Source: Octopus vulgaris
Lineage: Eukaryota
Assembly (NCBI GenBank): GCA_951406725.2
Contig: OX597824.1
Span: forward strand, 5,580,001 to 5,644,000
Length of the DNA: 64,000 bases
Direction: 5' to 3'
The first letter of the stretch is position 1; every line of letters starts with the position of its first letter. The notes beneath the pieces are model-generated. The model was not told the DNA's origin, did not search any database, and saw nothing but the letters and a program-made list of their open reading frames with translations. Position numbers and translations under genes: made by a program. Positions 455 to 51,838 of the stretch are shown one piece after another.

Positions 455-2199
455 TACATACATACGTGTGTGTGTAATGAAAGCATCGTCTGCATCTTGA
501 AAAATATAAAATCTCAAAGATTTATAAGAATGCTTCATGGATCTAATTGCAGTGTTCCAAGATCAAATGACATTGGAAGCCTTTTCATTTTTAAACGCTT
601 TCCAAATCCCCCGATTCAATAATCTACCGACTTCACGTCTCATTGAATCTGTTCTCCGATCATAATATGCAGGATATAATAATTTCTATTTGTGGATATA
701 ATATTGATTACTCTCTAGATCGATATGAGACCTAATTTAGTACCATACGTGTATATCAGAATAAGATAACGAAATTATATTACTGGTACAGATCTTATTT
801 ATCTTAGATTGATAAAAAGCAAAATGTGCCGTAAATATGCAGGTTCTGTCATTGAATTCTGATATTGGTTTATTTGATTCGAGCAGCAGTTTATATTACT
901 GGTCTTTTACATATTCATGAAAGGGGTGAGATAGTATTTTCAGATCACAGACAATATGGATAAAAGTAGATATTATAGAAACAAGCATTTCTTAGGAGGA
1001 GGATGCTACTGTACCTCTGGGATAATTATGTATATGTATGCACGACAGAGCAAAAGGCTTGACCAAAACCGCTGGACCTATACACATAAACAGCATACAG
1101 ATAACAAACAAGCTAGACATAAACGAAATATTAAGCAGAATATTTCGAACATTATAGAAAGCCAAAACTAAAACAGACTAAAGCTCCAGGAGCACCGAGC
1201 TATGCTTAGTTGTGCAGAGCAATCTTTTGTTGATCAAAAGGTTCGAAATTATTGAAGATAGTGCACGGTAGAAATGCGAAATTGGGAACGTGTACACGGA
1301 ATAAAACTGGAAAAATGAATGAAAAAAATGGAAATAACAGTAAATTGTAACCTCCAGTTTCATTTCACTTCTCACAGCTTTAGTCTTTACAATGCAGAGC
1401 TGCATCTGTTCGATGGTCAAATTAAACCATGTTTTAGAAGAGGTTCACCTCCAGCAAATAACGTCGTCTCTCTTGTTATTAGTATGTATTGACACTGGTG
1501 TCATTGCTGAAGAAGTTATTTCTATTGACTGCAATCCCGCTGTGTAAAGAATGTGCAATGTAAGTTGTATTAGTCTGATGGGTGATGAATATATTTGTTA
1601 GGTGCTATATGATTGACATTATGCATTTCACGTATAGTAAGTAGTGTACGGTTTGTCTAGCATTAAGTATTAGAAACTGTGCAAAATGTGCGCTGTGTGG
1701 CTTATTGGTGTTAATGTGATATGACAGGATATGGATTAATTTACTTTTAATGTGTTACTTGTATAAATCACTGATTACACGCTGTACACCCAAGAGTTTA
1801 GAGGATATAACTCAAAGCTTTAGAAAGTCTAAATTACTTAACAATATTTCAAACCTGCTGCTCATAAGTTTCTGGAACACATCTATGCTTAATAATACAA
1901 CGCAAGCAATTTATTTTTCTATGTTTTGCAAATTCAAACAAACCCTTTTTAAACTTTCCCTTCGAAATATGCCATATATTATTTTATTTCATCTCCACGC
2001 TACCATACTTTTATACTGCATCTCCTGTAGGCCATATTTCTTTTTACTTTACCTTTTGTACGTCATACTTTTTACTTCATACGCAGGATGCCATATTTTT
2101 TATACCTTATCTCCCGTTACGACCTATTTTTTACTTCATTTTCCAGTTCACCATATATTTACTTCACCTCCAGAACACCTTATAATTTATCCTTCAACT

Positions 2200-3300
2200 C
2201 TAGTACGTCGTATATGAACTTCTGCTGTATGCAATATGTTGCTATATCATCGCCAGGACACCTTATTTTTTTATTTAATTCCTTACCAGTGCACGACGAG
2301 GTAGAGAAAAAGGACTGCACCAGTAGAGTATAGTTTTAGATTCCCGAAACCAGACTGTTTTTATAATTACGTTGGATTTATTTGATCCAGATTTCTGCCC
2401 AGAGTTTTCTTGCTGCTTCTGAATCTAGCATATCATTTCTCTGATGTTCCCATTCATTGATTAGTTTGTTTTTTATAAATTTTTCTTTCGTTGTTCTTAA
2501 AGACTCTATTCTGCTTATTCTGGTTTGAGATATTTGTTTTTTTTTTCTACCTGAACTGCTTTGATTCTTTGTATTAGTTCGTCTTTATTTGCAGTGCTTT
2601 GCGTCTCATGTTGTACTTCTTTTGACAGTTCGTTCTTGCGTCTTATCCCTCACAGTTGTCTTTACAATGATTACATGTATCCATCCAAGGCCTTTCTGGA
2701 GCTGTTTTAATTTGGTTCTAAAGCATTCGTTCCTACCATGGAGATTTGTCTTTTGTTTTACTTTCGCTTTTAACCCATAGAATTTCTACAGCGACTGACG
2801 GTGCATAGCATATGAAGTCGTTTACATCTATTATGTTCCCGATGTAGATTTTCGGTAGCAGCTCGTCTATCTATTTCACTACTTTATAATAAGGTTTCCC
2901 CTTTCGATTCCCCGTGGAGCTTGTAGCATCTTTCTTTTGTTACTTCGTGCCTCGTTCAGGTGTAGTAATAAGTTACTTTCTTCTCTGTCAATAGTCTTTT
3001 CCACCACAAACTAGAATTTTCCACCATCCAAGCAGATCTTATTTTTTATTGGTGGTTACAGGTCCCTTCGTTAATCCCTGTTCTTATTCTGTTTTTGTTT
3101 CGCTCTTCGTGTTCAGAGTGGTTACGTTCACACGCTTTCAATATTGTCGACATCTTATCCAGCGCCAATTGGGATAACCACTACCTTTTTACGATTACGT
3201 TATTTTGGCCTAGAAGTCTACTCTGAGATAGGAAACCAGTCATTCCATGTTCTAATTTTGTTCATTCTTTTCCGTTACCCTATTTTGGTTGGCTCGCTTC
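2200..3300 (-). pseudogene. Highly decayed non-LTR retrotransposon ORF relic, R4/Dong-like pre-RT region
   Basis: Minus-strand peptide fragments across frameshifts (KQNRVFKNNERK.., RKLWAEIWIK, RCPGDDI) recall the QNxxF..FY, FWxxIW and KAPGxD motifs upstream of RT in RLE LINEs. Boundaries are vague. Confidence 0.35.
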
Positions 3301-5229
3301 TGCAATAGAATTCCATTATAGTGCTATCGTTTAAGTCCATTTTCTCCTACGCTTTGTAGCAGCTCTTCGATAATTGCCAGATCCAACATGCTGCGCAGTG
3401 GAGCACTTGCTGTACAAGAGACTTGTACTCACGTTTGTTTAGATGATTCTAGATTGATGCAAGAGTATATAAGGAGGACCTGGTCTCCGTGTGGAGGCAA
3501 GTAGTAAGCAGAAGTCGGTCAGTGTGAAACTATATAACAAAGACCTACATTCTGCGAGACGCGTGTTTTGAAGACACCTGGCTGTGTACAAATTCTTCTC
3601 CGGGTATGTTAGTTTGCTGGGCTGCGATTTCCCTGCTGCTAACATTTTCTCTTGGAGCCGTGTTGGTATATAAGGGAGGCCGAGTTTGGCAACAATATAC
3701 AAATCCAACCACTACCGTTTTGCCAGGAAGTCAAGATCGGCTGAGTTGGCTTTCAAACCTACATATACAAGTCTACGTTACTATTTTACACACCACAAAT
3801 CAACGGATTATAGAGATCTGTTAAGGGTATATTACAAAAAGAAAATAGTAACGACACCAAGAGCACCAGCCTGTATTTCAAAATTTACGGATACTTATAC
3901 AGTTCTGTGAAACAGAAAGGAAAACCAAATTAAAACAATAAACAAAAATAGCAATAATCTCACGGAACACAAAACCAAAGGTTAGATATCCGTTACAATA
4001 TAATTGCGTTATTTACTTCCCATTAAATGCAATGAATACGTGTTTAGTCTTCCTTATATTGTTCAGGTCTTTGCTGTTTATAATAACAAAGTGCATGAAA
4101 CCATAAGAGCAAGAACGAAGCAAAACAATTTAAAAAAAGAAAACGCAAAGACCCAATTTAGAAGAGCGCAAAAATATAGAAGTGATTCTTTGTGGATATT
4201 AATATAAATATCAATAAAAACATGTTACACTTACGTTTGTGAGAAACAGCAATGTTGTGTGAATTACAGTATGAAATGCGAGTAATTAAATCTATTGAAG
4301 CGAAATCTTCTCGAAATATTAATCTTAAATAAAAACGTCATTCAGAACAGCAGAAACAGATAGACCAATGGATATGACGTACTTTTATATGAATGCTTCA
4401 CAGGAAAACAGTTTTGAGCAAGAACTATCACCACAGAACATCACAAGCGAAATGGTCTTTCCGGACACAAAGGAAAAAGAAACCAACGTCTATGAAGAAG
4501 TTTTACATGAATACGTTTCAGGCAAACAAGTTTAAGCAAGAGGTAGCATCGCAGCATTGCACATGCAAAATCTAGCACATATAGAATACCAAATAGAATC
4601 TAGAGGAAATAATATGGATAATATGAATTAAAACAAACTAAAATAAAACAAAAATATATAGACGTCTACAGTTATATTTAACACGTTCGTGTACATTGAA
4701 ACATAGTAAGACTCCACTACAAAAATTATCTGTGGTGAGAAATTCTTTCTTATAGACAACGTGTGTGACAAAAACACATCCCTGGGCTACGAATGATATC
4801 GTGGGAGCGAAACATTTGTGTTTCTACATCGTTGTGCTTCATCACCTATGGGCATCGGATCTGTCGATCATGTGTGCAAGGTTTTGTGAAACTGGAGTTA
4901 AAGGCACGCTAATTCAAATATATATAACTACAATTATATTTGATGTATTAATTGCTGTTTCAATATAAGAGCAGCCAATTTTTAGTGGGCCGTGAGCGAT
5001 GAATTTCCGTGTTCATAGCTGATGAAATGTAACCATGCCGAAACACGTGCCTTCTGGTTCGATTATGTCATTCATAACTTAGTGGTGAGCTTTCCACACA
5101 CATTTCCTGACCAGAGGCAGTTTTCCCAGTAGACGTTTTTCTACCTCTGACATTCAATACACGTGTTAAATAAAATTGTACACACCTTTATTGCAATCAT
5201 TACTGCTAACTGTGCCTATAATAGAAGCA

Positions 5230-10455: not shown

Positions 10456-10758
10456 GGGGTAGAAGAAACTCACGGAACCAACGTTGCTTTTTCGCACTCT
10501 TACACGCACACAGATACACACACACACACACACTTGTACATAGGTATACATACACACGTACCCATATATGCACACATACACACGTACACACACAATCAAA
10601 CACACACGTATATATATATATATATATATAATATATAGAGGGTACTAAAATTCATAGGTACCGCACGCTAGGAGGGACTCTTGCAGTCAAAACTACTAAA
10701 ATAAACAAATTGTACCGAAGGCAAAACTTCTAAGCAAGTAATTTAAAAACAGAATTTA

Positions 10759-10822
10759 GTTACATATCACCTGTAATTTCGCAATCAATGCAGAATATGC
10801 ATTCTATGCTCTTCAGTGCAAC
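10759..10822 (-). ncRNA. Type I hammerhead ribozyme
   Basis: Minus strand: GUUGCA-CUGAAGA-GCA..UGC-GAAA-UUAC-AG-GUGA-UA-UGUAAC, the mirror copy of 11152-11215. Confidence 0.75.
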
Positions 10823-11151
10823 GAACTCAAGACATGTAAGGAAAAAACACAATATAGCATACCTGACAGTGGAAAAATTTACAGATTTTTTCTCTTACGA
10901 GGTTTTTCACGCTAACTACTGATAATTTCTTTTAAAGATTTTATCCTTAATTTTAAATTTATATTTTTCACCGGAATAGTTCAATACTGAATTTTTGTTC
11001 CGAATAGGCAAATTGTCACCGGAATGCATTGCGAATAAGCCCGCCATTTTCATAGATATGTAAAGATAAACATTCGTACATGCTACGACGAATTCTACGG
11101 TTGGCTATCGGGTATGCTATATTGTGTTTTTTCCTTACATGTCTTGAGTTC

Positions 11152-11215
11152 GTTGCACTGAAGAGCATAGAATGCATATTCAGCATTGATTGCGAAATCA
11201 CAGGTGATATGTAAC
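11152..11215 (+). ncRNA. Type I hammerhead ribozyme
   Basis: Stem I GUUGCA/UGUAAC; core CUGAAGA at 11158-11164; stem II GCA..AAUGC..GCAUU..UGC; GAAA at 11194-11197; stem III AUCAC/GUGAU; AUA cleavage triplet with predicted cut after 11209. Confidence 0.8.
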
Positions 11216-11477
11216 TAAATTCTGTTTTTAAATGACTTGCTTTGAAGTTTTGCATTCGGTACAATTTGTTTATTTTAGTAGTTTTGACTGCTAGAGTCCC
11301 TCCTAGTGTGCGGTACCTATGAATAATAGTACCCTCTATACAATATAAATAAATATGTTCTAAGTGGAAAAATTTACAGGTTTTTCTCTTACGTAGTTTT
11401 TCACGCTAACTACTGATAATTTCTTATAAAGATTTTATCCTTAATTTTAAATTTATATATATATATGTATATATATA

Positions 11478-11559
11478 TAAAGTATTGAAGCCATCTTATC
11501 ATGGCTAACCACATTGGGAAGGGGGTGGTTAGCCATGATAAGATGGCTTCTATACTTTA
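11478..11559. repeat. Hairpin foldback between (TA)n tracts
   Basis: Arms 11478-11512 / 11525-11559 (taaagta.tgaagccatcttatcatggctaaccac). A related sequence lies inside the Helitron-like element at ~29495-29575. Confidence 0.8.
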
Positions 11560-12047: not shown

Positions 12048-12527
12048 ACATGTTTATATACACATACATTCAGGCACACATACATGTATACATACATATA
12101 TGTGAGCACACACACAGACACACGCACATAATGTATTAAAATCAATAATAATTAGAGTTTCAAGTAGCATATCACACCTCTCTATTACTGAGAATGTGTT
12201 TGACGCCTATGCTCTGCTCTAACGAGGCCTTAATAAAAGCAGATATTTCGACAAAGCATTAGCTACTCCTCCGCGACTGGAAAATTGCGAGATCATACAA
12301 CGGATGGCTGCAAGAGCAAAAACACCCACAGAAATACAATTACGTGCAATACTAAAAATAACTAGAAAAATATAAGAAACCCAACACTTCTGAATCGAAA
12401 GAATAAGAATGTAAATGATAAATATCATGCGCTTCCCATAATATCAACTCGCACAATGTAGATTCTACTGATAATAGTAAAACTCATCACAACAGTCGTT
12501 ATCATAATTATAATAATAATAATAATC

Positions 12528-12558
<31 letters not shown>

Positions 12559-12571
12559 GAAGAAGAAGAAG

Positions 12572-13040
12572 AAAGCAACCATACTCTGGGATATGCCGAT
12601 ACACACAGATAGAGAAATTAAGGCCAACAGACCAGATATAGTTGTCAGAGATCATGAAGAAAAAAAATGCTTTCTAATTGATGTATCAATACCGGCAGAT
12701 GACAACGTGTCTCTAAAAGAAATGGAGAAACTCTCAAAATACAAAGACCTGGAAATAGAGGTAACTAGAATGTGGAACCTGAAAACAGAAACAATTCCTA
12801 TCATAGTAGGTGCATTAGGCATGATAAAAAAATATTCAGACAAATACATAACAAAATCACCAGGACTTACAAACACATATAACATACAGAAAATTGCACT
12901 ACTAGGCACTGCACACATCCTACGCAGAACACTTTCCATACAATAACCATCAGAGCATCACAACAAATCACAGCACATACCCAAGGCACACAGAGCTGCG
13001 CTCGGTAGTGAAGTGAAAGCACGCTATAAAAATAAAACTA

Positions 13041-13110: not shown

Positions 13111-13329
13111 TCGATATAATGAAGTTATTTAGGAAAGATTAAACGAACGTTAGTAGTCGTACTAATATTAGAACTGACACTAATAGTTCTGGAATTGATA
13201 TTCGTAATAAAGATAGACATGTATCGAACATTAAGAATGACAATGAATGTACTGTAAAATTTCCTGACGCTAATGTTAATTATACTAATGGTTATAATAG
13301 CGCTAGCGGTCTTAAAACAATTAATAACA

Positions 13330-13556
13330 CTATGACTAAGTATAGCTGTTCGAATAATCTTGATGGTACCATTAAAGCACACAAGTGCAAATGCTGCAAG
13401 TCCAAAAGCCAACCGAGCTGGCGCAATATTGGCATAGTCTGGTTTAATCCACCATGGAACGCCAATATTATTACGAAACTATCTAATAGGTGATTTGCTT
13501 CTTTAGAGAGAAAAAAGTCCCTATCCAATAAATATTCCCACATCTTTAATAAGTCG
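13330..13556 (+). pseudogene. Penelope-like element ORF relic (RT-endonuclease linker region)
   Basis: A single frame reads MTKYSCSNNLDGTIKAH..WRNIGIVWFNPPWNANIITKLSNR*FASLERKKSLSNKYSHIFNK, matching the PLE IWFNPP..F..IFN and SYSCxxN motifs. A SINE cuts it at 13558. Confidence 0.7.
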
Positions 13557-13557
13557 A

Positions 13558-13868
13558 GGCGCAATGGCCCAGTGGTTAAGGCAGTGGACTCGCGGTCGGA
13601 GGATCGCGGTTTCGATTCCCAGACCGGTTTTTGTGTGTGTTTATTTAGCGAAAAACACTTGAAGCTCCACGATGCTGCGGCATTGGCTGGTGGTGACCCT
13701 TGTTGTACTCTTTCGTCCCAACTTTCTCTTACTCTTTCTTCCTGTTTCTTGAGTAACGCTGCGATGGACTGGCGTCCCGTCCAGCTGGGAAAACACATAC
13801 GCCACAGAAACCGGGAAACCGGGCCCATGAGACTGGCTAGGCTTGAAAAGGTCATATAAATAAAATAA
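13558..13868 (+). mobile_element. tRNA-derived SINE family C (V/Meta-like 3' domain)
   Basis: Head ggcgcaatggcccagtggttaaggcag..ggtttcgattccc; 3' domain gcgatggactggcgtcccgtccag..cagaaaccggg; TSD acatctttaataa at 13540-13552 and 13869-13881. Confidence 0.9.
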
Positions 13869-15426
13869 ACATCTTTAATAAATGTAAGATAAGAATTACA
13901 TTTTTCATCGTTACTTAATCTAGGTATCCGTTCCACTCCTTACAAATTCACGAAGTGATTATATAATCAATTTTCCTCTTTCAGTTATCGTAGTAGGGGC
14001 TAAGGTTACATCACTCTCAGAAAAAATATGGAAATTAAATTAAATTACAAATTATCTGGAGCGCAATAAATCATGCATTATCCTACACAAACAATACGTA
14101 CGAGTGTACCCTATTCCTGAGCTGAATTATAAGTTTAATGTACGTTGGGTAAAACGCATTTGAATCTTTAAACCAGTTACCTCAAATAATACTTCTCGGC
14201 TTCTATTTTGCAAACTCATCAACATAGTTAAGTACATCATTTAAATCTTTCAGTATTGTTTGAATCGTATGTTACATAATGCATTCGGCCTCCTGATTAC
14301 TCATTCTCATATTTTTTGGAACCTGTATATTTTATGAATAATGAAATATTTGATTATCTGCTGTGTGAGCTCCGAGCTCTCTATTATTCGCCCACGACTT
14401 CTTATACATAATGCTTATATTTCTTTATTTTTATACCCTTTGGTTTCTATCTCTATACTTACACAAGTATATAAATGTTTGGCTCTGTGTGAGGGTATAT
14501 ATATATATATATATATATGCGTGTATACAAGGGCCTGTATATGTGTTCGCGCATTTGTATACATGTGTGCATGTATGTATATATATGTATATATGTGTGT
14601 AAGCGTATGTGTGCATATATGCATGTACATATATATGTATGTATATATGTATGTGTGTAAGTGTGTGTGTACATATAAAAAAATATATATATTGCGTGTA
14701 CGTTTGTAAACATACATATTTGTGTGTATGTGTATGTATGTGTATATACATATATTTGTTAATATGTGTGTATGTATATATGTGAATGTGTCTATATATA
14801 TATATAGACATGCGTATAAGTGTGTATGAGTGCATGTGTCTCAGCGTGTGTGCGTGTACGAGCGTGAAAAGCACTTAAAGTTTTATGAGTTTCTGCTGCC
14901 CTGAGGTCTGCTTCCTTTTATGTCACTTAACCGACAAGGTGTCATCCTAGTCTTAATGACTCACCTGTCCTGGCTACAGCTTGTCTACGTTCCTTGCATT
15001 TCTTCATAACAAAATATCGCTATCAACTAATTAAGATAATTGTTTGAAATAATAGATTCGTTTGATCTCCTTGCCTCTCGCATGCCCATTAAATTTCTAA
15101 TATCTCTATTCATGCGAATGCTCTTTTCTAAACTACCACTTATCCAATATGTTATTGGATATGTCATCATCAAGGTTTTTACTTCATCTCTTTATGCTTT
15201 ATGAAAAAGCAATGTTTTGGACTTACGACACATAGTGATATCGAACGCTGCAAATAGCAAATAACGAGACAAGAAAAAGACGCACACGGAATATTAGCTT
15301 GACGTTCAGTAAAGGTGACAAAAAAAAAAGAGCGGGTTTTTACGATTCTTCGTCAGAGAGAGAGGAGAAAGAAAAGGTCCGAAAAAGTCCTGAAAAAGCA
15401 CGTGTTTCGTTACATGGTTATGTATA

Positions 15427-22716: not shown

Positions 22717-23167
22717 GACAAAAATGCATTAAAGAAATACTTTTGAATGGTATTGAGAAGAATTAAGCGGTCACGACTGTCTTAATATATATTGTATCAA
22801 AAGGTGCAAACGCAGAAATGGACAATGAATAAGTCAATAAAAATCAATGACATTTCAAGGAAATTACCGTAAAAAAAATGTAATACGATGTTTCGTGAAT
22901 TTGAAATGACCAAGAAATTAATAATGAATAGAGAATTTGACATCGAATAATTCACGCGGAGATTTATTATATATAATGTAGTTATTCCAAAAGTTAGTTA
23001 TGTATTATTTCAATTCTGACTTTTTAATTTGCTCTTATACATTGTATAAGTGTTATAAGTATGACTTCAAAATTTTTGATTGAGTTCCTTGATAAATCTT
23101 TTGCACTTGACGAAACTTTTCGTTCTAGTTGCAATTTGGCTATTGTAATTTATATTTCATACGCCAT

Positions 23168-23228
23168 GATGCAACTCCGAGTTTCGGATGTCGGGGCGCA
23201 AACCCACGCCGCCATCTCTTCAGTTATC
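23168..23228 (-). ncRNA. Hammerhead-like motif, paralog of 9706-9768
   Basis: Minus strand GAUAA-CUGAAGA-GAUG..CAUC-C-GAAA-C-UCGGA-GUU-GCAUC. The core is intact but stem I is partly broken. Flanks are homologous to 9712-9850. Confidence 0.55.
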
Positions 23229-24654
23229 CGGCTATCGAAAAAAATGCTATGAAAATGACCGTTATACAAAGGGATATTACTGTGTGATTGACAGTTATTA
23301 AGACAAAAGAGCTATTAGAATGACCGCTAAGTGAGGGGAGTGAGTAAGGTAAGGGGGGAAAAATTTTCATAGTATTCGCGTAAGCCCGTCTGTCCATACA
23401 TACACATGCGCGTCCGCACACCCTTGTACATGCACCGAAAAGTATATACTCATCCACTCTCATTTGAAACACACACATGCTTACCCACACATTCGCCAAA
23501 AAATATATACATATCCACATACACACTCGCACACACACACACGCACACAAAAAATGGTTCTTGCACACGTCTATATACGCACATGGACAAGAAAAAAAAA
23601 ACAGGGCTAAAAGCAAAATACAGAAAAATGTGTAAAAAAAGTGTAAAAAAATAAGCAATAAGAGTAAAACACATCTATATACGCGAATACCCGCACACGT
23701 ATATATACGCACACACATGCACACGCACAAGAAAGGTTCATACACACGCCTATATACGCACATGCACACGAAATATAAAAAGATGAGAAGATAAGACGAT
23801 ATACATTCACACAGACGTACACACTCACATACACACATGCACACACATATATACACACAACCACACACAAACACAAACACACACTCACAAGAATACTATA
23901 CATGCATGTGTATGTGCAATTGTCTTTAGAATTAATGAGAAAAGAAAATAGAAATAGTTGAAGTTAAATTAAAATTCCCTTTTCTCGAAGTATAAAACTG
24001 GAGGATACAAGAAACGTATGTATTTGTAAGATGTGGGTAACAAAACAATGGTATTGTAAAGAGAGTTATTCTGGTTTGATACACAAAATGTGTTATTGCA
24101 TAGGATTCAATAAGGTGTGAAACTGAAAGAGTAAATATATGCGTCATATTCAGAACACCGTATATGTTGGCTGAAGGTTCGCACTTCCTAGGTAATCACT
24201 TCGTCTATGTATCTACGCCGTACCTAACTCTTATTTAAATTATTCCGTCTATCTAATGAAAACTCTACCAAAACCTATACAAATAACCAAAGTAATTCAC
24301 AGTCTGGTGACTGTGAATAAGTCGATAGATTAATGAGTATGTAATCTCCGAAAATACATTGTGTAATCCTTTAATTTCATGTTAGATTGCTCTCATCTAT
24401 AACTTCACATATAGGCAAACATTATTCTATGTGTATATGTTTATATATACATTCATACATACACGGACATGTATATCTACACGCACATACATATATACAT
24501 ACACACCTATATATATACATATACATACACACTCATATACATAGATAAATACATACATACTAACTTCAACTTATTTCTAATTTCTTCTTTCATTAATTCT
24601 AATGACAATTGCACGCACATATACATGCATATATATGTATTCTTGCGTGTGTGT

Positions 24655-25132
24655 GTGTGGATGCGTGGTTCTATCACTATGATCCAGAGACCAAAGCCCA
24701 GTCAATGCAGTGGAAGAACCGTGACTCACCTCCTCCAAAGAAGGCAAGGGTGCAGCCCTCCGCTGGCAAGGTCATGCTCACAGTCTTCTGGGACCAGGAC
24801 GGAGTAGTGATGACAGATTTCCTGGCAAAGGGTACCACAATTACAGGAGCCTATTATGCTTCACTTTTGAGGAAATTAAGAGAAGCTATCAAAATCAAGA
24901 GCGGGGCAAGATCAGCAAAGGCATCCTCCTCCTGCAGGACAACGCTCCGGTCCACAACTCGCGTGTCGCCAGATCAGAAGCACAGGCGTGAGGCTATGAA
25001 CTCCTCCCCCATCCTCCTTGCACCCTCTGATTTTCACCTCTTCCCAGCCATGAAGTTGTTTTTGAAAGGAAAGCGTTTCCCAGATGATGCAGCCTTGATT
25101 TCTGAAGTCACGTCGTGGTTGGAGGACCAAGC
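24655..25132 (+). mobile_element. Mariner transposase fragment, frameshifted, running into an assembly gap
   Basis: WFYHYDPETKAQSMQW..SAGKVMLTVFWD..TITGAYY; then, in a shifted frame, LLQDNAPVH; then LAPSDFHLF. Confidence 0.9.
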
Positions 25133-25232
25133 NNNNNNNNNNNNNNNNNNNNNNNNNNNNNNNNNNNNNNNNNNNNNNNNNNNNNNNNNNNNNNNNNNNN
25201 NNNNNNNNNNNNNNNNNNNNNNNNNNNNNNNN
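25133..25232. other. Assembly gap (100 N)
   Basis: Run of n characters. Confidence 1.
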
Positions 25233-25396
25233 AAATTTCTTACCACATTTATGTATGCGCTTATCGGACACACAGACATATGCATACGTGTGAGTGTTTT
25301 TGCGCGTGCGCATGTTTGTGTACCTCTTTTAATTTACTTAAGATACCCTGAGGCTGTTGTAATACTGTTGTATTATAAAAGCATACGCTTATGTGC

Positions 25397-25451
<55 letters not shown>

Positions 25452-25579
25452 AAGCTTTATGAAAATAAACAAAAGACGAAGGCAGGTGGAAAACAAACAA
25501 ACAATTGTATTAGTATGGCGCTCAGGAAATATAAATAAAACAAGTCTTTAACGTTATATACATATATATATGTATATAT

Positions 25580-25986: not shown

Positions 25987-26182
25987 GAGAGTGAGTGAGA
26001 GAGAGAGAGAGAGAGAGAGTAGTTGTATACTGTCAACTTAATGTGACAGTCCCATGAAGGGAATCACACCACTGCTATTTAGGGCTAGGATGGATCAACG
26101 CTTCCTGTCGGCCTTCACACATTTCCTGTGTCCTTATGTTTACAAAGGGGAGAGAAGCACCCCCACCCAGCTAAGCCTGCAC

Positions 26183-26222
26183 CCAGAGACTAGTTTCTGA
26201 GTCTTGCTCGTCATCAGTCTGG
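26183..26222 (-). ncRNA. Minimal type I hammerhead ribozyme
   Basis: Minus strand CCAGA-CUGAUGA-cGAG caaga CUCa-GAAA-CUA-GUC-UCUGG: 5-bp stem I, palindromic ACUAGU stem III and a GUC cleavage triplet. Confidence 0.8.
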
Positions 26223-26349
26223 AGTAGCATGGCCTGCTAGCCGGAGATGCTTGTCTAGGCCCTGTAAACATATAAGAATTCTAGTGAAATAAATCCACTG
26301 ATTACACATTCTTAATATATCATATATAATATATAATATGTAATATACC

Positions 26350-27177: not shown

Positions 27178-27960
27178 CTCCTGTACGTGGATGACTTTAC
27201 GCTAAAAGCACTATAGAAAGAGAAAGCTTATCAAAATTGTTCAGAATGTGAGCAATGACATCGGAATGATCATGGGTCTGGACAAATGTGTCGAAGTCAC
27301 ACTAAGGAGAGGCAAATTATTCAGCACTGAAAACACTGCACTCGATATAAAGACAGTGATTAGATAATTACACCACAAACACCCATACAAATATCCAGGA
27401 AGAGAAGAAACAGCTAAAATACAACACGCAGAAATGAAAGCGAAAATTAGGAGAGGGTATTAGAGAAGAGTTAGACTAATATTAAATGCTGAACTTAATG
27501 TTAAAAATAAGATAATTGGGATAAACATGCTAAGCATACCAGTCATGAATTACAGCTTTAACATAATAAACTGGAAGATCAGTGGATTGAGAAACCTAGA
27601 TAGGAAAACCAGAAAACTACTAACAGTGTCCCGAAGTCATCACCCCGAAGCAGGCGCAGACAGAATGTATCTACCCCACTCAGAGGGAGGCCATAGCCAG
27701 ATACAGATAGAAAACTACTATAAAATAACAACAGTTGGCTTCGACTTTCACTCTGTTAGACGAATGTATCTACCCCACTCAGAGGGAGGCCATAGCCAGA
27801 TACAGATAGAAAACTACTATAAAATAACAACAGTTGGCTTCGACTTTCACTCTGATTGCTTTTAAAGGAGAGTGAAAATAGGAATTCTTCTCGTGTTACA
27901 AACAAATGCTTGAATATCGGGAACAGCTTCCACTTGAAGCCAATGAAGATGAATATATAC
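27178..27960 (+). pseudogene. Decayed R4/Dong-type RT fragment following (TAA)n
   Basis: LLYVDD.., DIGM..GLDKC, ELNVKNKI, YSFNIINW..LDRKTRKLLT..HHP..DRMYLPHSEGG. (TAA)n lies at 27080-27150. Confidence 0.8.
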
Positions 27961-30465: not shown

Positions 30466-30511
30466 GTTAGTACTTGATATCCTGTTGCTTATTTTGATTA
30501 TATATATATTA

Positions 30512-30669
30512 TATAGAGGGTACTATTGTTCATAGGTGCCGCACGCTAGGAGGGTCTCTTGCAGTCAAAACTACTATAATAAACAAATTGTACCGAATGC
30601 AAAACTTCAAAGCGAGTCATTTAAAAACAGAATTTAGTTACATATCACCTGTGATTTCGCAATCAATGC

Positions 30670-30672
<3 letters not shown>
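30512..30672. mobile_element. Truncated single-arm copy of the 10634 foldback family in (TA)n
   Basis: tatagagggtacta..cgcacgctaggaggg..gttacatatcacctgtgatttcgcaatcaatgcaga. It breaks inside HHR stem II into (TA)n. Confidence 0.9.
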
Positions 30673-30761
<89 letters not shown>

Positions 30762-31229: not shown

Positions 31230-31820
31230 GTGGCGAGCTGGCAGAAACGTTAGCATGCCGGGCGAAATGATTAGCAGTATTTCGTCTGTTGTTACGTTCT
31301 GAGTTCAAATTCCGCCGTGGTCGACTTTGCCTTTCATCCTTTCGGGGTCGATAAATTAAGTACCAGTAACGCACTGGGGTCGATATAATCGACTTAATCC
31401 GTCTGTCTGTCCTTGTTTGTCCTCTGTGTGTTTAGCCCCTTGAGGATAGTAAAGAAATAGGTAGTTCGTCTGCTGTTACGTTCTGAGTTCAAATTCCACC
31501 GAGGTCGACTTTGCCTTTCATCCATTCGGGGTCGATTAAATAAGTACCAGTTACGCACTGGGTCGATATAATCGACTTATTCCGTCTGTCTGTCCTTGTT
31601 TGTCCTCTCTGTGTTTAGTCCCTTGTGGGTAGTAAAGAAACAGGTATTTCGTCTGCCGCTACGTTCTGAGTTCAAATTCCACCGCGGTCGACTTTGCCTT
31701 TCATCCATTCGGGGTCGATTAAATAAGTACCAGTTGCGCACTGAGGTCGATATAATCGACTATAATGACTTAACCCCTTCCCCCAAGTTGCTGCCCTTTT
31801 GGCAAAATTGGAAACCATTA
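31230..31820 (+). mobile_element. SINE family B trimer (one head, three tandem bodies)
   Basis: ttctgagttcaaattcc..tcgactttgcctttcatcc..aagtaccagt repeats at ~31297, ~31482 and ~31664. Confidence 0.9.
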
Positions 31821-43104: not shown

Positions 43105-43505
43105 AAGGCGGCGAGCACACCGGGCGAAATGCGTAGCGGTATTTCGTCAGCCGGTACGGTCTGAGTTCAAATTCCGCCGAGGTCGACTTTGCCTTTCATC
43201 CTTTCGGGGTCGATAAATTAAGTACCAGTTATGCACTGGGGTCGATGTAATCGTCTTAATACCTATGTCTGTCCTTGTTTGTCCCCTCTGTGTTTAGCCC
43301 CTTGTGGGTAATAAAGGAATAGGTATTTCGTCAGCCGGTACGGTCTGAGTTCAAATTCCGCCGAGGTCGACTTTGCCTTTCATCCTTTCGGGGTCGATAA
43401 ATTAAGTACCAGTTACGCACTGGGGTCGATGGAATCGACTTAATCGCTTTGTCTGTCCTTGTTTGTCCCCTCTGTGTTTAGCCCCTTGTGGGTAGTAACG
43501 AAATA
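43105..43505 (+). mobile_element. SINE family B dimer with candidate TSD
   Basis: The body repeats at 43138 and 43322. Similar flanks ataga..atcacgaaat lie at ~43082-43103 and ~43507-43526. Confidence 0.9.
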
Positions 43506-43671
43506 GATATAGAGAGATCACGAAATACGTAAATAAACCGTTTTTAATGACATCTTTAGGTTGCAAAAGGTCAGTGCTTCGAGTCCCGCAAGAAGCTTTC
43601 TGCTCAAGATATCCTTTAACCTGCTGTATTTTATCCTTTTCTCATGTTGTTATTGATAGGCTATCATATAT

Positions 43672-46842: not shown

Positions 46843-46846
<4 letters not shown>

Positions 46847-47432
46847 TAATGCAATACAAAGTATTGCCTTCCAGTAAAAAGTAGCCCGTGAGGGAAAAAT
46901 ACACAAATTAGTAAATAAATGGCACAACTAAGTACCGATATTTACTGGAAATAGCGAATGTAAAAATACGACGCTAATGTGTAGCTTCACCGCGTATGTA
47001 TTAGCAAAAATGCGTGTGTGCAACAAAATTAGAAAAAAAAACCGTCTTACCTCCAGGGAGAACATCTGAAAGATGAAACACCCGGAAAATGGATAATGTG
47101 GTACCTGCAGGTTTCAGGTTTTACAAGATATGTCTCTCACCTATATTTTGTTTTACCTTCATCATCATTGGCTGATGAAGGTAAAACAAAATATAGGTGA
47201 GAGACATATCTTTTAAAACCTGAAACCTGCAGGTACCACATTATCCTTTTCCGGGTGTTTCATCTTTCAGATGTTCTCCCTGGAGGTAAGACGGTTTTTT
47301 TCTCTATTTTGTTGCACACACGCATTTTTGCTAATACATACGCGGTGAAGCTACACATTAGCGTCGTATTTTTACGTTCGCTATTTCCAGTAAATATCGG
47401 TACTTAGTTGTGCCATTTATTTACCAATTTGT
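46843..47432. mobile_element. Foldback element in (TA)n, ~260-bp arms, 8-nt apex
   Basis: Arms 46903-47164 / 47173-47432 with loop tcattggc. (TA)n lies on both sides. Confidence 0.9.
47169..47238 (+). ncRNA. Type I hammerhead ribozyme at the foldback apex
   Basis: UGG-CUGAUGA (47172-47178)-AGGU..ACCU-GAAA-CCUGCAG-GUA-CCA, with palindromic stem III ACCUGCAGGU and a GUA triplet. Stem I is only 3 bp. Confidence 0.7.
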
Positions 47433-47565
47433 ATATATATATATATATATATAACGTTAAGTCCTCTTTCCTTCCTTTTCTGAGCGTTGTGATAATACAG
47501 TGCTTGTACCACATCCTCGCTTTATTGTTTTTTTCTTATTTGCTCTTCTGTGTTTGGATTCATTA

Positions 47566-51020: not shown

Positions 51021-51838
51021 AAGGCGGCGAGCTGGCAGAAACGTTAGCACGCCGGGGGAAATGCTTAGCCGTATTTCGTCTGCCGCTACGTTTTGAGTTC
51101 AAATTCCGCCGAGGTCGACTTTGTCTTTCATCCTTTCGGAGTCGATAAATTAAGTACCAGTTACGCACTGAGGTCGATATAATCGACTTAATCCCTTTGT
51201 ATGTCTTTCTTTATCCCCTCTATGTTTAGCCCCTTGTGGGCAATAAAGAAATAAGAAATGTTAGCACACCGGACGAAATGCGTAGCAGTATTTCGTCTGT
51301 CTTTACGCTCCGAGTTCAAATTCCACCGATGTCAAGTTTGCCTTTTATCCTTTCGTGGTCTATAAATTAAGTACCAGTTACGCATTGGGTCGATCTAATC
51401 GACTCAATCCCTTTGTCTGTCCTTGTTTAGCCCCTTGTGGGCAATAAAGAAATAAGAAACATTAGCACGCCCGGCGAAATGATTAGCGGTATTTCGTCTA
51501 CCGCGACGTTCTGAGTTCAAATTCCGCAGAGGTCGTCTTTGCATTTCAACCTTTCGGGGTCAAAAAATTAATTACCAGTTACGGACTGGGGTCGATCTAA
51601 TCGACTTAATCCGTTTGTCTGTCCTTGTTTGTCCTCTCAGTGTTTAGCCCCCTGTGGGCAGTAAAGAAGCAGGTATTTCGTATGTCTTTACGTTCTGAGT
51701 TCAAATTCCACCGATGCAGAGTTTGCCTTTCATCATTTTGTGGTTAATAAATTAAGTACCAGTTGCGTTCTGGGGTCGATCTCATCGGCCAGACCCCTCC
51801 TCACCAAAATAATTCGGGCCTTGTGCCTAGAGTAGAGA
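51021..51838 (+). mobile_element. SINE family B tetramer
   Basis: gagttcaaattcc..aaattaa.taccagtt occurs four times (~51096, 51312, 51514, 51697), with a partial head gaaa..ttagcac in internal units. Confidence 0.9.

Follow-up and report, generated by a model that had tools for sequence, protein, structure and literature searches.

In the twin priming of L1 elements, the two ends of a cut target DNA prime on one RNA and an inverted arm results, a layout matched by the insertion at 10634-11458. In the Octopus family to which this insertion belongs, by contrast with L1, the priming sites are fixed and internal, poly(A) is absent and the overlap between arms is often far larger. For Penelope-like elements (PLEs), the accessible text of PMC11167929 reports in vitro insertion in which both DNA strands are cut and extended, and traces the tail to two internal reverse transcription (RT) start sites; the main substrate was uncleaved RNA, and ribozyme mutants still inserted. 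The origin of PLE tails and inverted arms, and the movement of animal retrozymes as circles by means of PLE enzymes, are left open in the available parts of PMC8557442, PMC11167929 and 10.64898/2026.07.22.740005.

The window is the whole 64-kb stretch of Octopus vulgaris DNA analysed here, and 10634-11458 within it is a single insertion belonging to a non-coding family that is dispersed in the genome and has a unit of ~495 nt; it is set between two (TA)n target tracts (10609-10633 and 11459-11480). The foldback with hammerheads on both strands reported in the preliminary description was confirmed: the inverted arms (10618-10869 and 11105-11356) span 252 nt with 94% complementarity, and each strand has an intact core. 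The left arm is TA-rich over its outermost ~16 nt, which places the end of the element at ~10634. The left arm (10634-10869, minus strand) is 5'-truncated, runs from unit position 238 to an end that we call A (~473-489) and has no tail. At the junction it overlaps by 2 nt (10868-10869) with the direct arm (10868-11458, plus strand), which holds 1.2 units: unit positions 1-495 (10868-11362) and a 97-nt repeat reaching a second end, B. The recurrence at 11363 of the segment starting at 10868 was likewise borne out, as 10868-10964 is repeated at 11363-11458 over 97 columns with 94.8% identity and a period of 495. The tail, from end A to end B, occupies 11341-11458 (~105-120 nt, its A border being blurred by TA-rich sequence), and the direct arm stops about 7-20 nt past A, which is the layout of twin priming. 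An assembly artefact was rejected because the arms differ by 6% and dozens of loci have the same layout. A truncated third arm in (TA)n, also described previously, was recovered at 30501-30677 (minus strand, 93.8%); it is a separate solo insertion of the family with an A end, bordered by TA runs, and is truncated inside stem II, so that it lacks the ribozyme core.

No stop-free frame of at least 170 aa overlaps the unit, a tblastn search of the 64-kb window with PLE protein gave no match, and the insertion lacks the ORF with RT and GIY-YIG that marks an autonomous PLE. Elsewhere in the window, open frames at 24606-25535 (+), 12422-12943 (+) and 13295-13939 (-) resemble what we take to be mariner-type transposase and non-LTR retrotransposon fragments. 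Tandem dimers or trimers of a 183-201-nt SINE-like repeat, together with a 99-nt duplication, were seen at 31277-31766, 43138-43510, 51037-51630 and 27658-27854.

The plus-strand ribozyme is a type I hammerhead (11146-11222) with an extended bulged stem I, an extended stem II and a short stem III. Stem I pairs 11152-11157 with 11210-11215, CUGAAGA lies at 11158-11164 and GAAA at 11194-11197, and cleavage is predicted after 11209. The minus-strand type I copy (10759-10822) keeps an intact core, with one U-G wobble in stem III, and its predicted cut, mapped from the plus copy, falls at 10765/10764. Rfam returned no hammerhead among five matches at E<=10 and, for the whole window, mostly microsatellite noise among the matches listed; the hammerhead call is therefore based on the motif and on covariation. 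When 12 copies representing about seven sister families were aligned, 89.4% of cells were paired, with 41 two-sided changes, as compared with 29-39% paired in slid controls; the rows had been chosen on the invariant core and stem III, so that stems I and II alone are informative. A 27-nt core pattern had 176 exact matches in the genome and its reversed control had 0; a second 27-nt pattern had 206. Cores were intact in 128 of 142 hammerhead spans, a sample biased towards intact copies.

The preliminary description had predicted that a self-cleaved RNA of ~495 nt would arise here, which for 10634-11458 itself was not upheld. The insertion has one hammerhead per strand and not two or more in tandem, and in the predicted fold of a read-through transcript the plus copy is wholly paired with the inverted arm, sequestered in the foldback; on these two grounds, no 495-nt monomer would be excised from the insertion in cis. 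The hammerhead fold is predicted to lie 4.1 kcal/mol above the local minimum free energy, and the predicted circular monomer does not form it. As modelled, 10634-11458 is likely to be an inert, dead product and not a source of circles. Two or more hammerhead spans were present in 10 of 243 arms (two being duplicates), and these are possible source loci.

Within the 2.8-Gb genome the unit is dispersed (3081 first-look candidates), and a wider hammerhead pattern, which takes in sister families, gave 660 matches. We mapped 177 loci on the unit, representing 154 unique insertions; they are partly non-independent, including near-duplicates such as L033/L043 and L175/L176, and 30 were picked for length. 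The ~495-nt period claimed for this locus recurs family-wide, with tandem spacings of 492-497 and a longest arm of 2.7 units. The 5' ends of copies are scattered along the unit, and there are two fixed 3' ends, A (~473-489) and B (~97 of the next unit). Among 139 arms at 87 pattern-selected loci, 61 end at A, 57 at B and 21 elsewhere, the last including arms that were broken secondarily as well as a recurrent end near 415; this third end, at unit position ~415, was seen at L051 and L054, outside (TA)n. TA-rich DNA follows 111 of the 118 A or B ends. The unit had been described as circularly permuted; with 118 of 139 arms ending at A or B, random permutation was rejected. The A-to-B extension of the family is a PLE tail of ~105-120 nt, and the apparent permuted unit is this Penelope tail plus a truncation point: the extra 97 nt of 10868-11458 are tail, and hence not random permutation. 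A conserved multi-stem structure is predicted around the A site (11302-11406, plus strand), with a hairpin just 5' of A. Across nine sequences a hairpin is predicted just 5' of each end, and the two-sided change in 3 of 33 pairs gives weak covariation for a conserved structure there.

The two ends are combined in an almost invariant manner. The 154 unique insertions include 60 that have two arms in head-to-head arrangement, each terminating at A or B; of these, 59 were A+B, one was B+B and none was A+A; a further 28 insertions, with an end elsewhere or a complex shape, were left uncounted. The excess of A+B is highly significant under independent choice (p~3e-17, with a few near-duplicate loci included) and was complete (21/21) in the subset found by the second pattern alone. 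Solo copies end at either site (30 at A, 36 at B). In a 459-nt sister family (16 loci examined), 10 of 10 head-to-head pairs were A+B, the tail from the same motif being 129 nt as against 118 nt in the 495-nt family. Copies of a young autonomous PLE in the genome likewise run out into (TA)n, some of them after a ~34-nt tail, and in 10 of 10 distinct head-to-head pairs (58 loci examined) the tail is on one arm; 7 of these pairs had been fetched because both arms were listed.

A second head-to-head foldback in (TA)n, unrelated to the first, is present in the window at 46845-47436. It is a 540-nt palindrome (96%) that carries, at 47172 (+), a type I hammerhead motif whose stem III is palindromic, and one arm is ~54 nt longer than the other. 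Its family is young (1422 first-look candidates), partner arms end at 272 and 326 of the query, and the geometry is one-tailed like that of the 495-nt family. Hammerhead-like motifs were also seen at ~26170-26230 (-) and ~23160-23235 (-), the former looking like a minimal PLE-type ribozyme.

A search for GIY-YIG brought up a young autonomous PLE with RVT_1 and GIY-YIG in its ORF and ORFs of up to 781 aa; its 3' end is unrelated to the unit. The young autonomous PLE at L143:890-4390 and its relatives (613 exact pattern matches) has an upstream 303-aa ORF and a hammerhead-like motif with the non-canonical core UUGAUAA, not CUGANGA. None of 20 GIY-YIG loci contained an autonomous PLE resembling the unit at the DNA level, nor was a PLE similar to the unit seen among the matches listed for 48 GIY-YIG loci; the partner enzyme is assumed from geometry. 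PLE diversity was sampled in part, and the unit might be no independent retrozyme but a solo pLTR, or a 3' fragment, from an autonomous PLE that escaped detection. At L261 a decayed PLE RT/GIY-YIG remnant (1310-3635) is indeed fused directly upstream of a sister retrozyme arm, between TA runs. However, the 3' end present in other copies of that PLE is its own and is dissimilar, which led us to reject L261 as the autonomous parent, and within this partial sampling no homology to the unit was found downstream of the L261-type PLE. Moreover, what lies 5' of the tail is the previous unit (period 492-497) and not an ORF. We regard the fragment explanation as very improbable; L261 is a one-off chimera that may record a template switch.

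We consider it likely that 10634-11458 is an animal non-LTR retrozyme, or non-autonomous PLE, whose insertion was carried out in trans by a Penelope-like RT/GIY-YIG protein. The basis of this reading is the unit, the covarying hammerhead, the (TA)n targets, the two ends, the A+B pairing, the geometry of the autonomous PLE and the sharing of alleles within insertions. In the latter analysis (109 loci), 94 of the 141 sites polymorphic in inverted arms had derived alleles common to both arms, where the null is 14%; for tandem units the count was 81 of 112, with a null of 13%. Rare alleles were shared 29 times between inverted arms (2.1 expected) and 19 times between tandem units (1.5 expected), pairs inside one locus not being independent. 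At L243, two tandem units have 11 variants in common with each other and with the opposite arm, and at young sister-family loci entire private haplotypes recur on the two arms and in the two units. At 10634-11458, 3 of 5 derived sites are shared, none of them rare, and the two arms differ from each other about as much as random copies do (5.7% versus 6.3%). There was no RNA editing footprint (A>G 83, T>C 110; 4.0 per 1000 each).

The ribozyme cut was reached by 63 arms, of which 7 stop at 333-353 (within 10 nt) and 56 pass, which excludes run-off of the RT from the end of a linear cleaved monomer. As arms and units share rare alleles and 5' ends are not piled up at the cut, the likely template is a single RNA of monomer length that was read more than once, either as a circle or by template jumps. 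The earlier attribution of the locus to reverse transcription or PLE activity on circular or multimeric RNA thus stands on allele sharing and read-through of the cut, whereas its permutation detail gives way to the fixed A and B ends. The unit is largely covered by contigs of four presumed-RNA runs. Two of these contigs join 11360 back to 10873, a join given equally by genomic tandems, and the contigs show no ends.

Template jumping, homogeneous multimers or gene conversion after insertion could also be sources of allele sharing. An uncleaved linear multimer could have served as template under the same PLE mobilisation, as could a monomer that was re-read by template jumps; no circle would then be needed, and the hammerhead would act at a different step. 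Ribozyme cleavage is dispensable for PLE insertion in vitro according to the available text of PMC11167929, the 10 arms with at least two hammerhead spans could yield multimer RNA, and just 3 of 88 arms pass the second cut site. Against this, tandem units in one arm share locus-private alleles (the 19 instances given above, and also L243 and L248), and terminal and internal copies have the identical majority base throughout positions 1-88, with five nominal frequency differences, which would not easily come from a fixed linear master. We judge a circle-free template of this kind to be rather unlikely.

The inverted arm might also form by fold-back of the first cDNA, in a self-primed, DNA-templated reaction, with an endonuclease resolving the second end at A. 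This would account directly for the alleles shared between arms, self-priming has been proposed for PLE palindromes (PMC3846280, in the portion available), and both 5' ends lie within 20 nt of each other at 13 of 59 junctions (p~0.001), near-palindromes that fit such a reaction. In 23 of 59 pairs, however, neither arm is contained in the other, so that one cannot have been copied from the other and fold-back is excluded as the general route; nor does fold-back fit the comparable numbers of solo copies with an A end and with a B end. A stop at A of the kind expected from twin priming occurred in only 9 of 59 pairs (p~0.05). Fold-back thus appears improbable as an explanation of the family, and may apply to a minority of insertions.

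For priming at both DNA ends, the following series of events can be envisaged. The rare loci with at least two tandem hammerheads would be transcribed, and their RNA would cleave itself to a monomer that is probably circularized. The PLE protein would cut both strands of (TA)n; RT would be primed at site B by one DNA end and at site A by the other, on a single RNA or on RNAs from the same source. Each cDNA would cross the ribozyme junction and stop at a variable point, and the two would be joined head-to-head. At 10634-11458, the B arm would have run 1.2 units and stopped about site A, as twin priming expects. We tentatively propose, at somewhat less than even chances, that a dimeric Penelope protein on one hammerhead-made circle of ~495 nt primes both ends of the cut (TA)n, with one RT per site and the sites structurally set 105-130 nt apart. 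Each head-to-head insertion would then be a twin-primed rolling-circle copy of a single molecule, and the tail, set by the spacing of the RT active sites on the RNA, could be 3-4 times longer than in the autonomous partner.

The family combines features of two known classes. With retrozymes it has in common a type I hammerhead, a non-coding unit of a few hundred nucleotides devoid of LTR and ORF and, at the family level, tandems with at least two hammerheads. With non-autonomous PLEs it has in common two fixed 3' ends with a tail on one arm, 5' truncation, tandem and inverted arms and AT-rich targets. The animal non-LTR retrozymes of Cervera & de la Pena (2020; PMC7229834, available portion) are also non-coding low-GC units with a type I hammerhead and tandem organization, and co-occurrence with PLEs is common to these, to the retrozymes of Li, Clavereau & Pollet (2026; 10.64898/2026.07.22.740005, likewise in part) and to the Octopus family. 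The 495-nt unit falls within the 51-972 bp range of the latter study and exceeds the 170-400-nt RNAs of the former. In the accessible text of both, however, retrozymes occur as arrays, whereas the Octopus family consists mostly of dispersed copies of <1.5 units; (TA)n targeting, two fixed 3' ends and A+B arms were not met there. A further apparent difference from known retrozymes is that no pLTR homology to an autonomous PLE was found among the loci examined. Within the literature covered, our search yielded no paper on cephalopod retrozymes and no account of an obligate A+B rule. A short element with many copies provides counts for the A+B rule, for shared haplotypes and for read-through of the cut site, and its unit is a small, defined RNA suited to the existing in vitro PLE assay. 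With EN+ PLEs, as described in the available parts of Frangieh 2024 (PMC11167929), Craig 2021 (PMC8557442) and Arkhipova 2013 (PMC3846280), the family shares 5' truncation, partial tandems, an inverted 5'-truncated arm, a tail at one end, AT-rich or (TA)n targets and two internal RT starts. In the same sources the EN+ PLE tail is 30-40 nt and is placed on one arm 'often' or 'optionally', as compared with ~105-130 nt and 59 of 60 insertions in the ORF-less Octopus family. The class itself is known; the long tail and the near-absolute A+B rule were not encountered in the literature covered.
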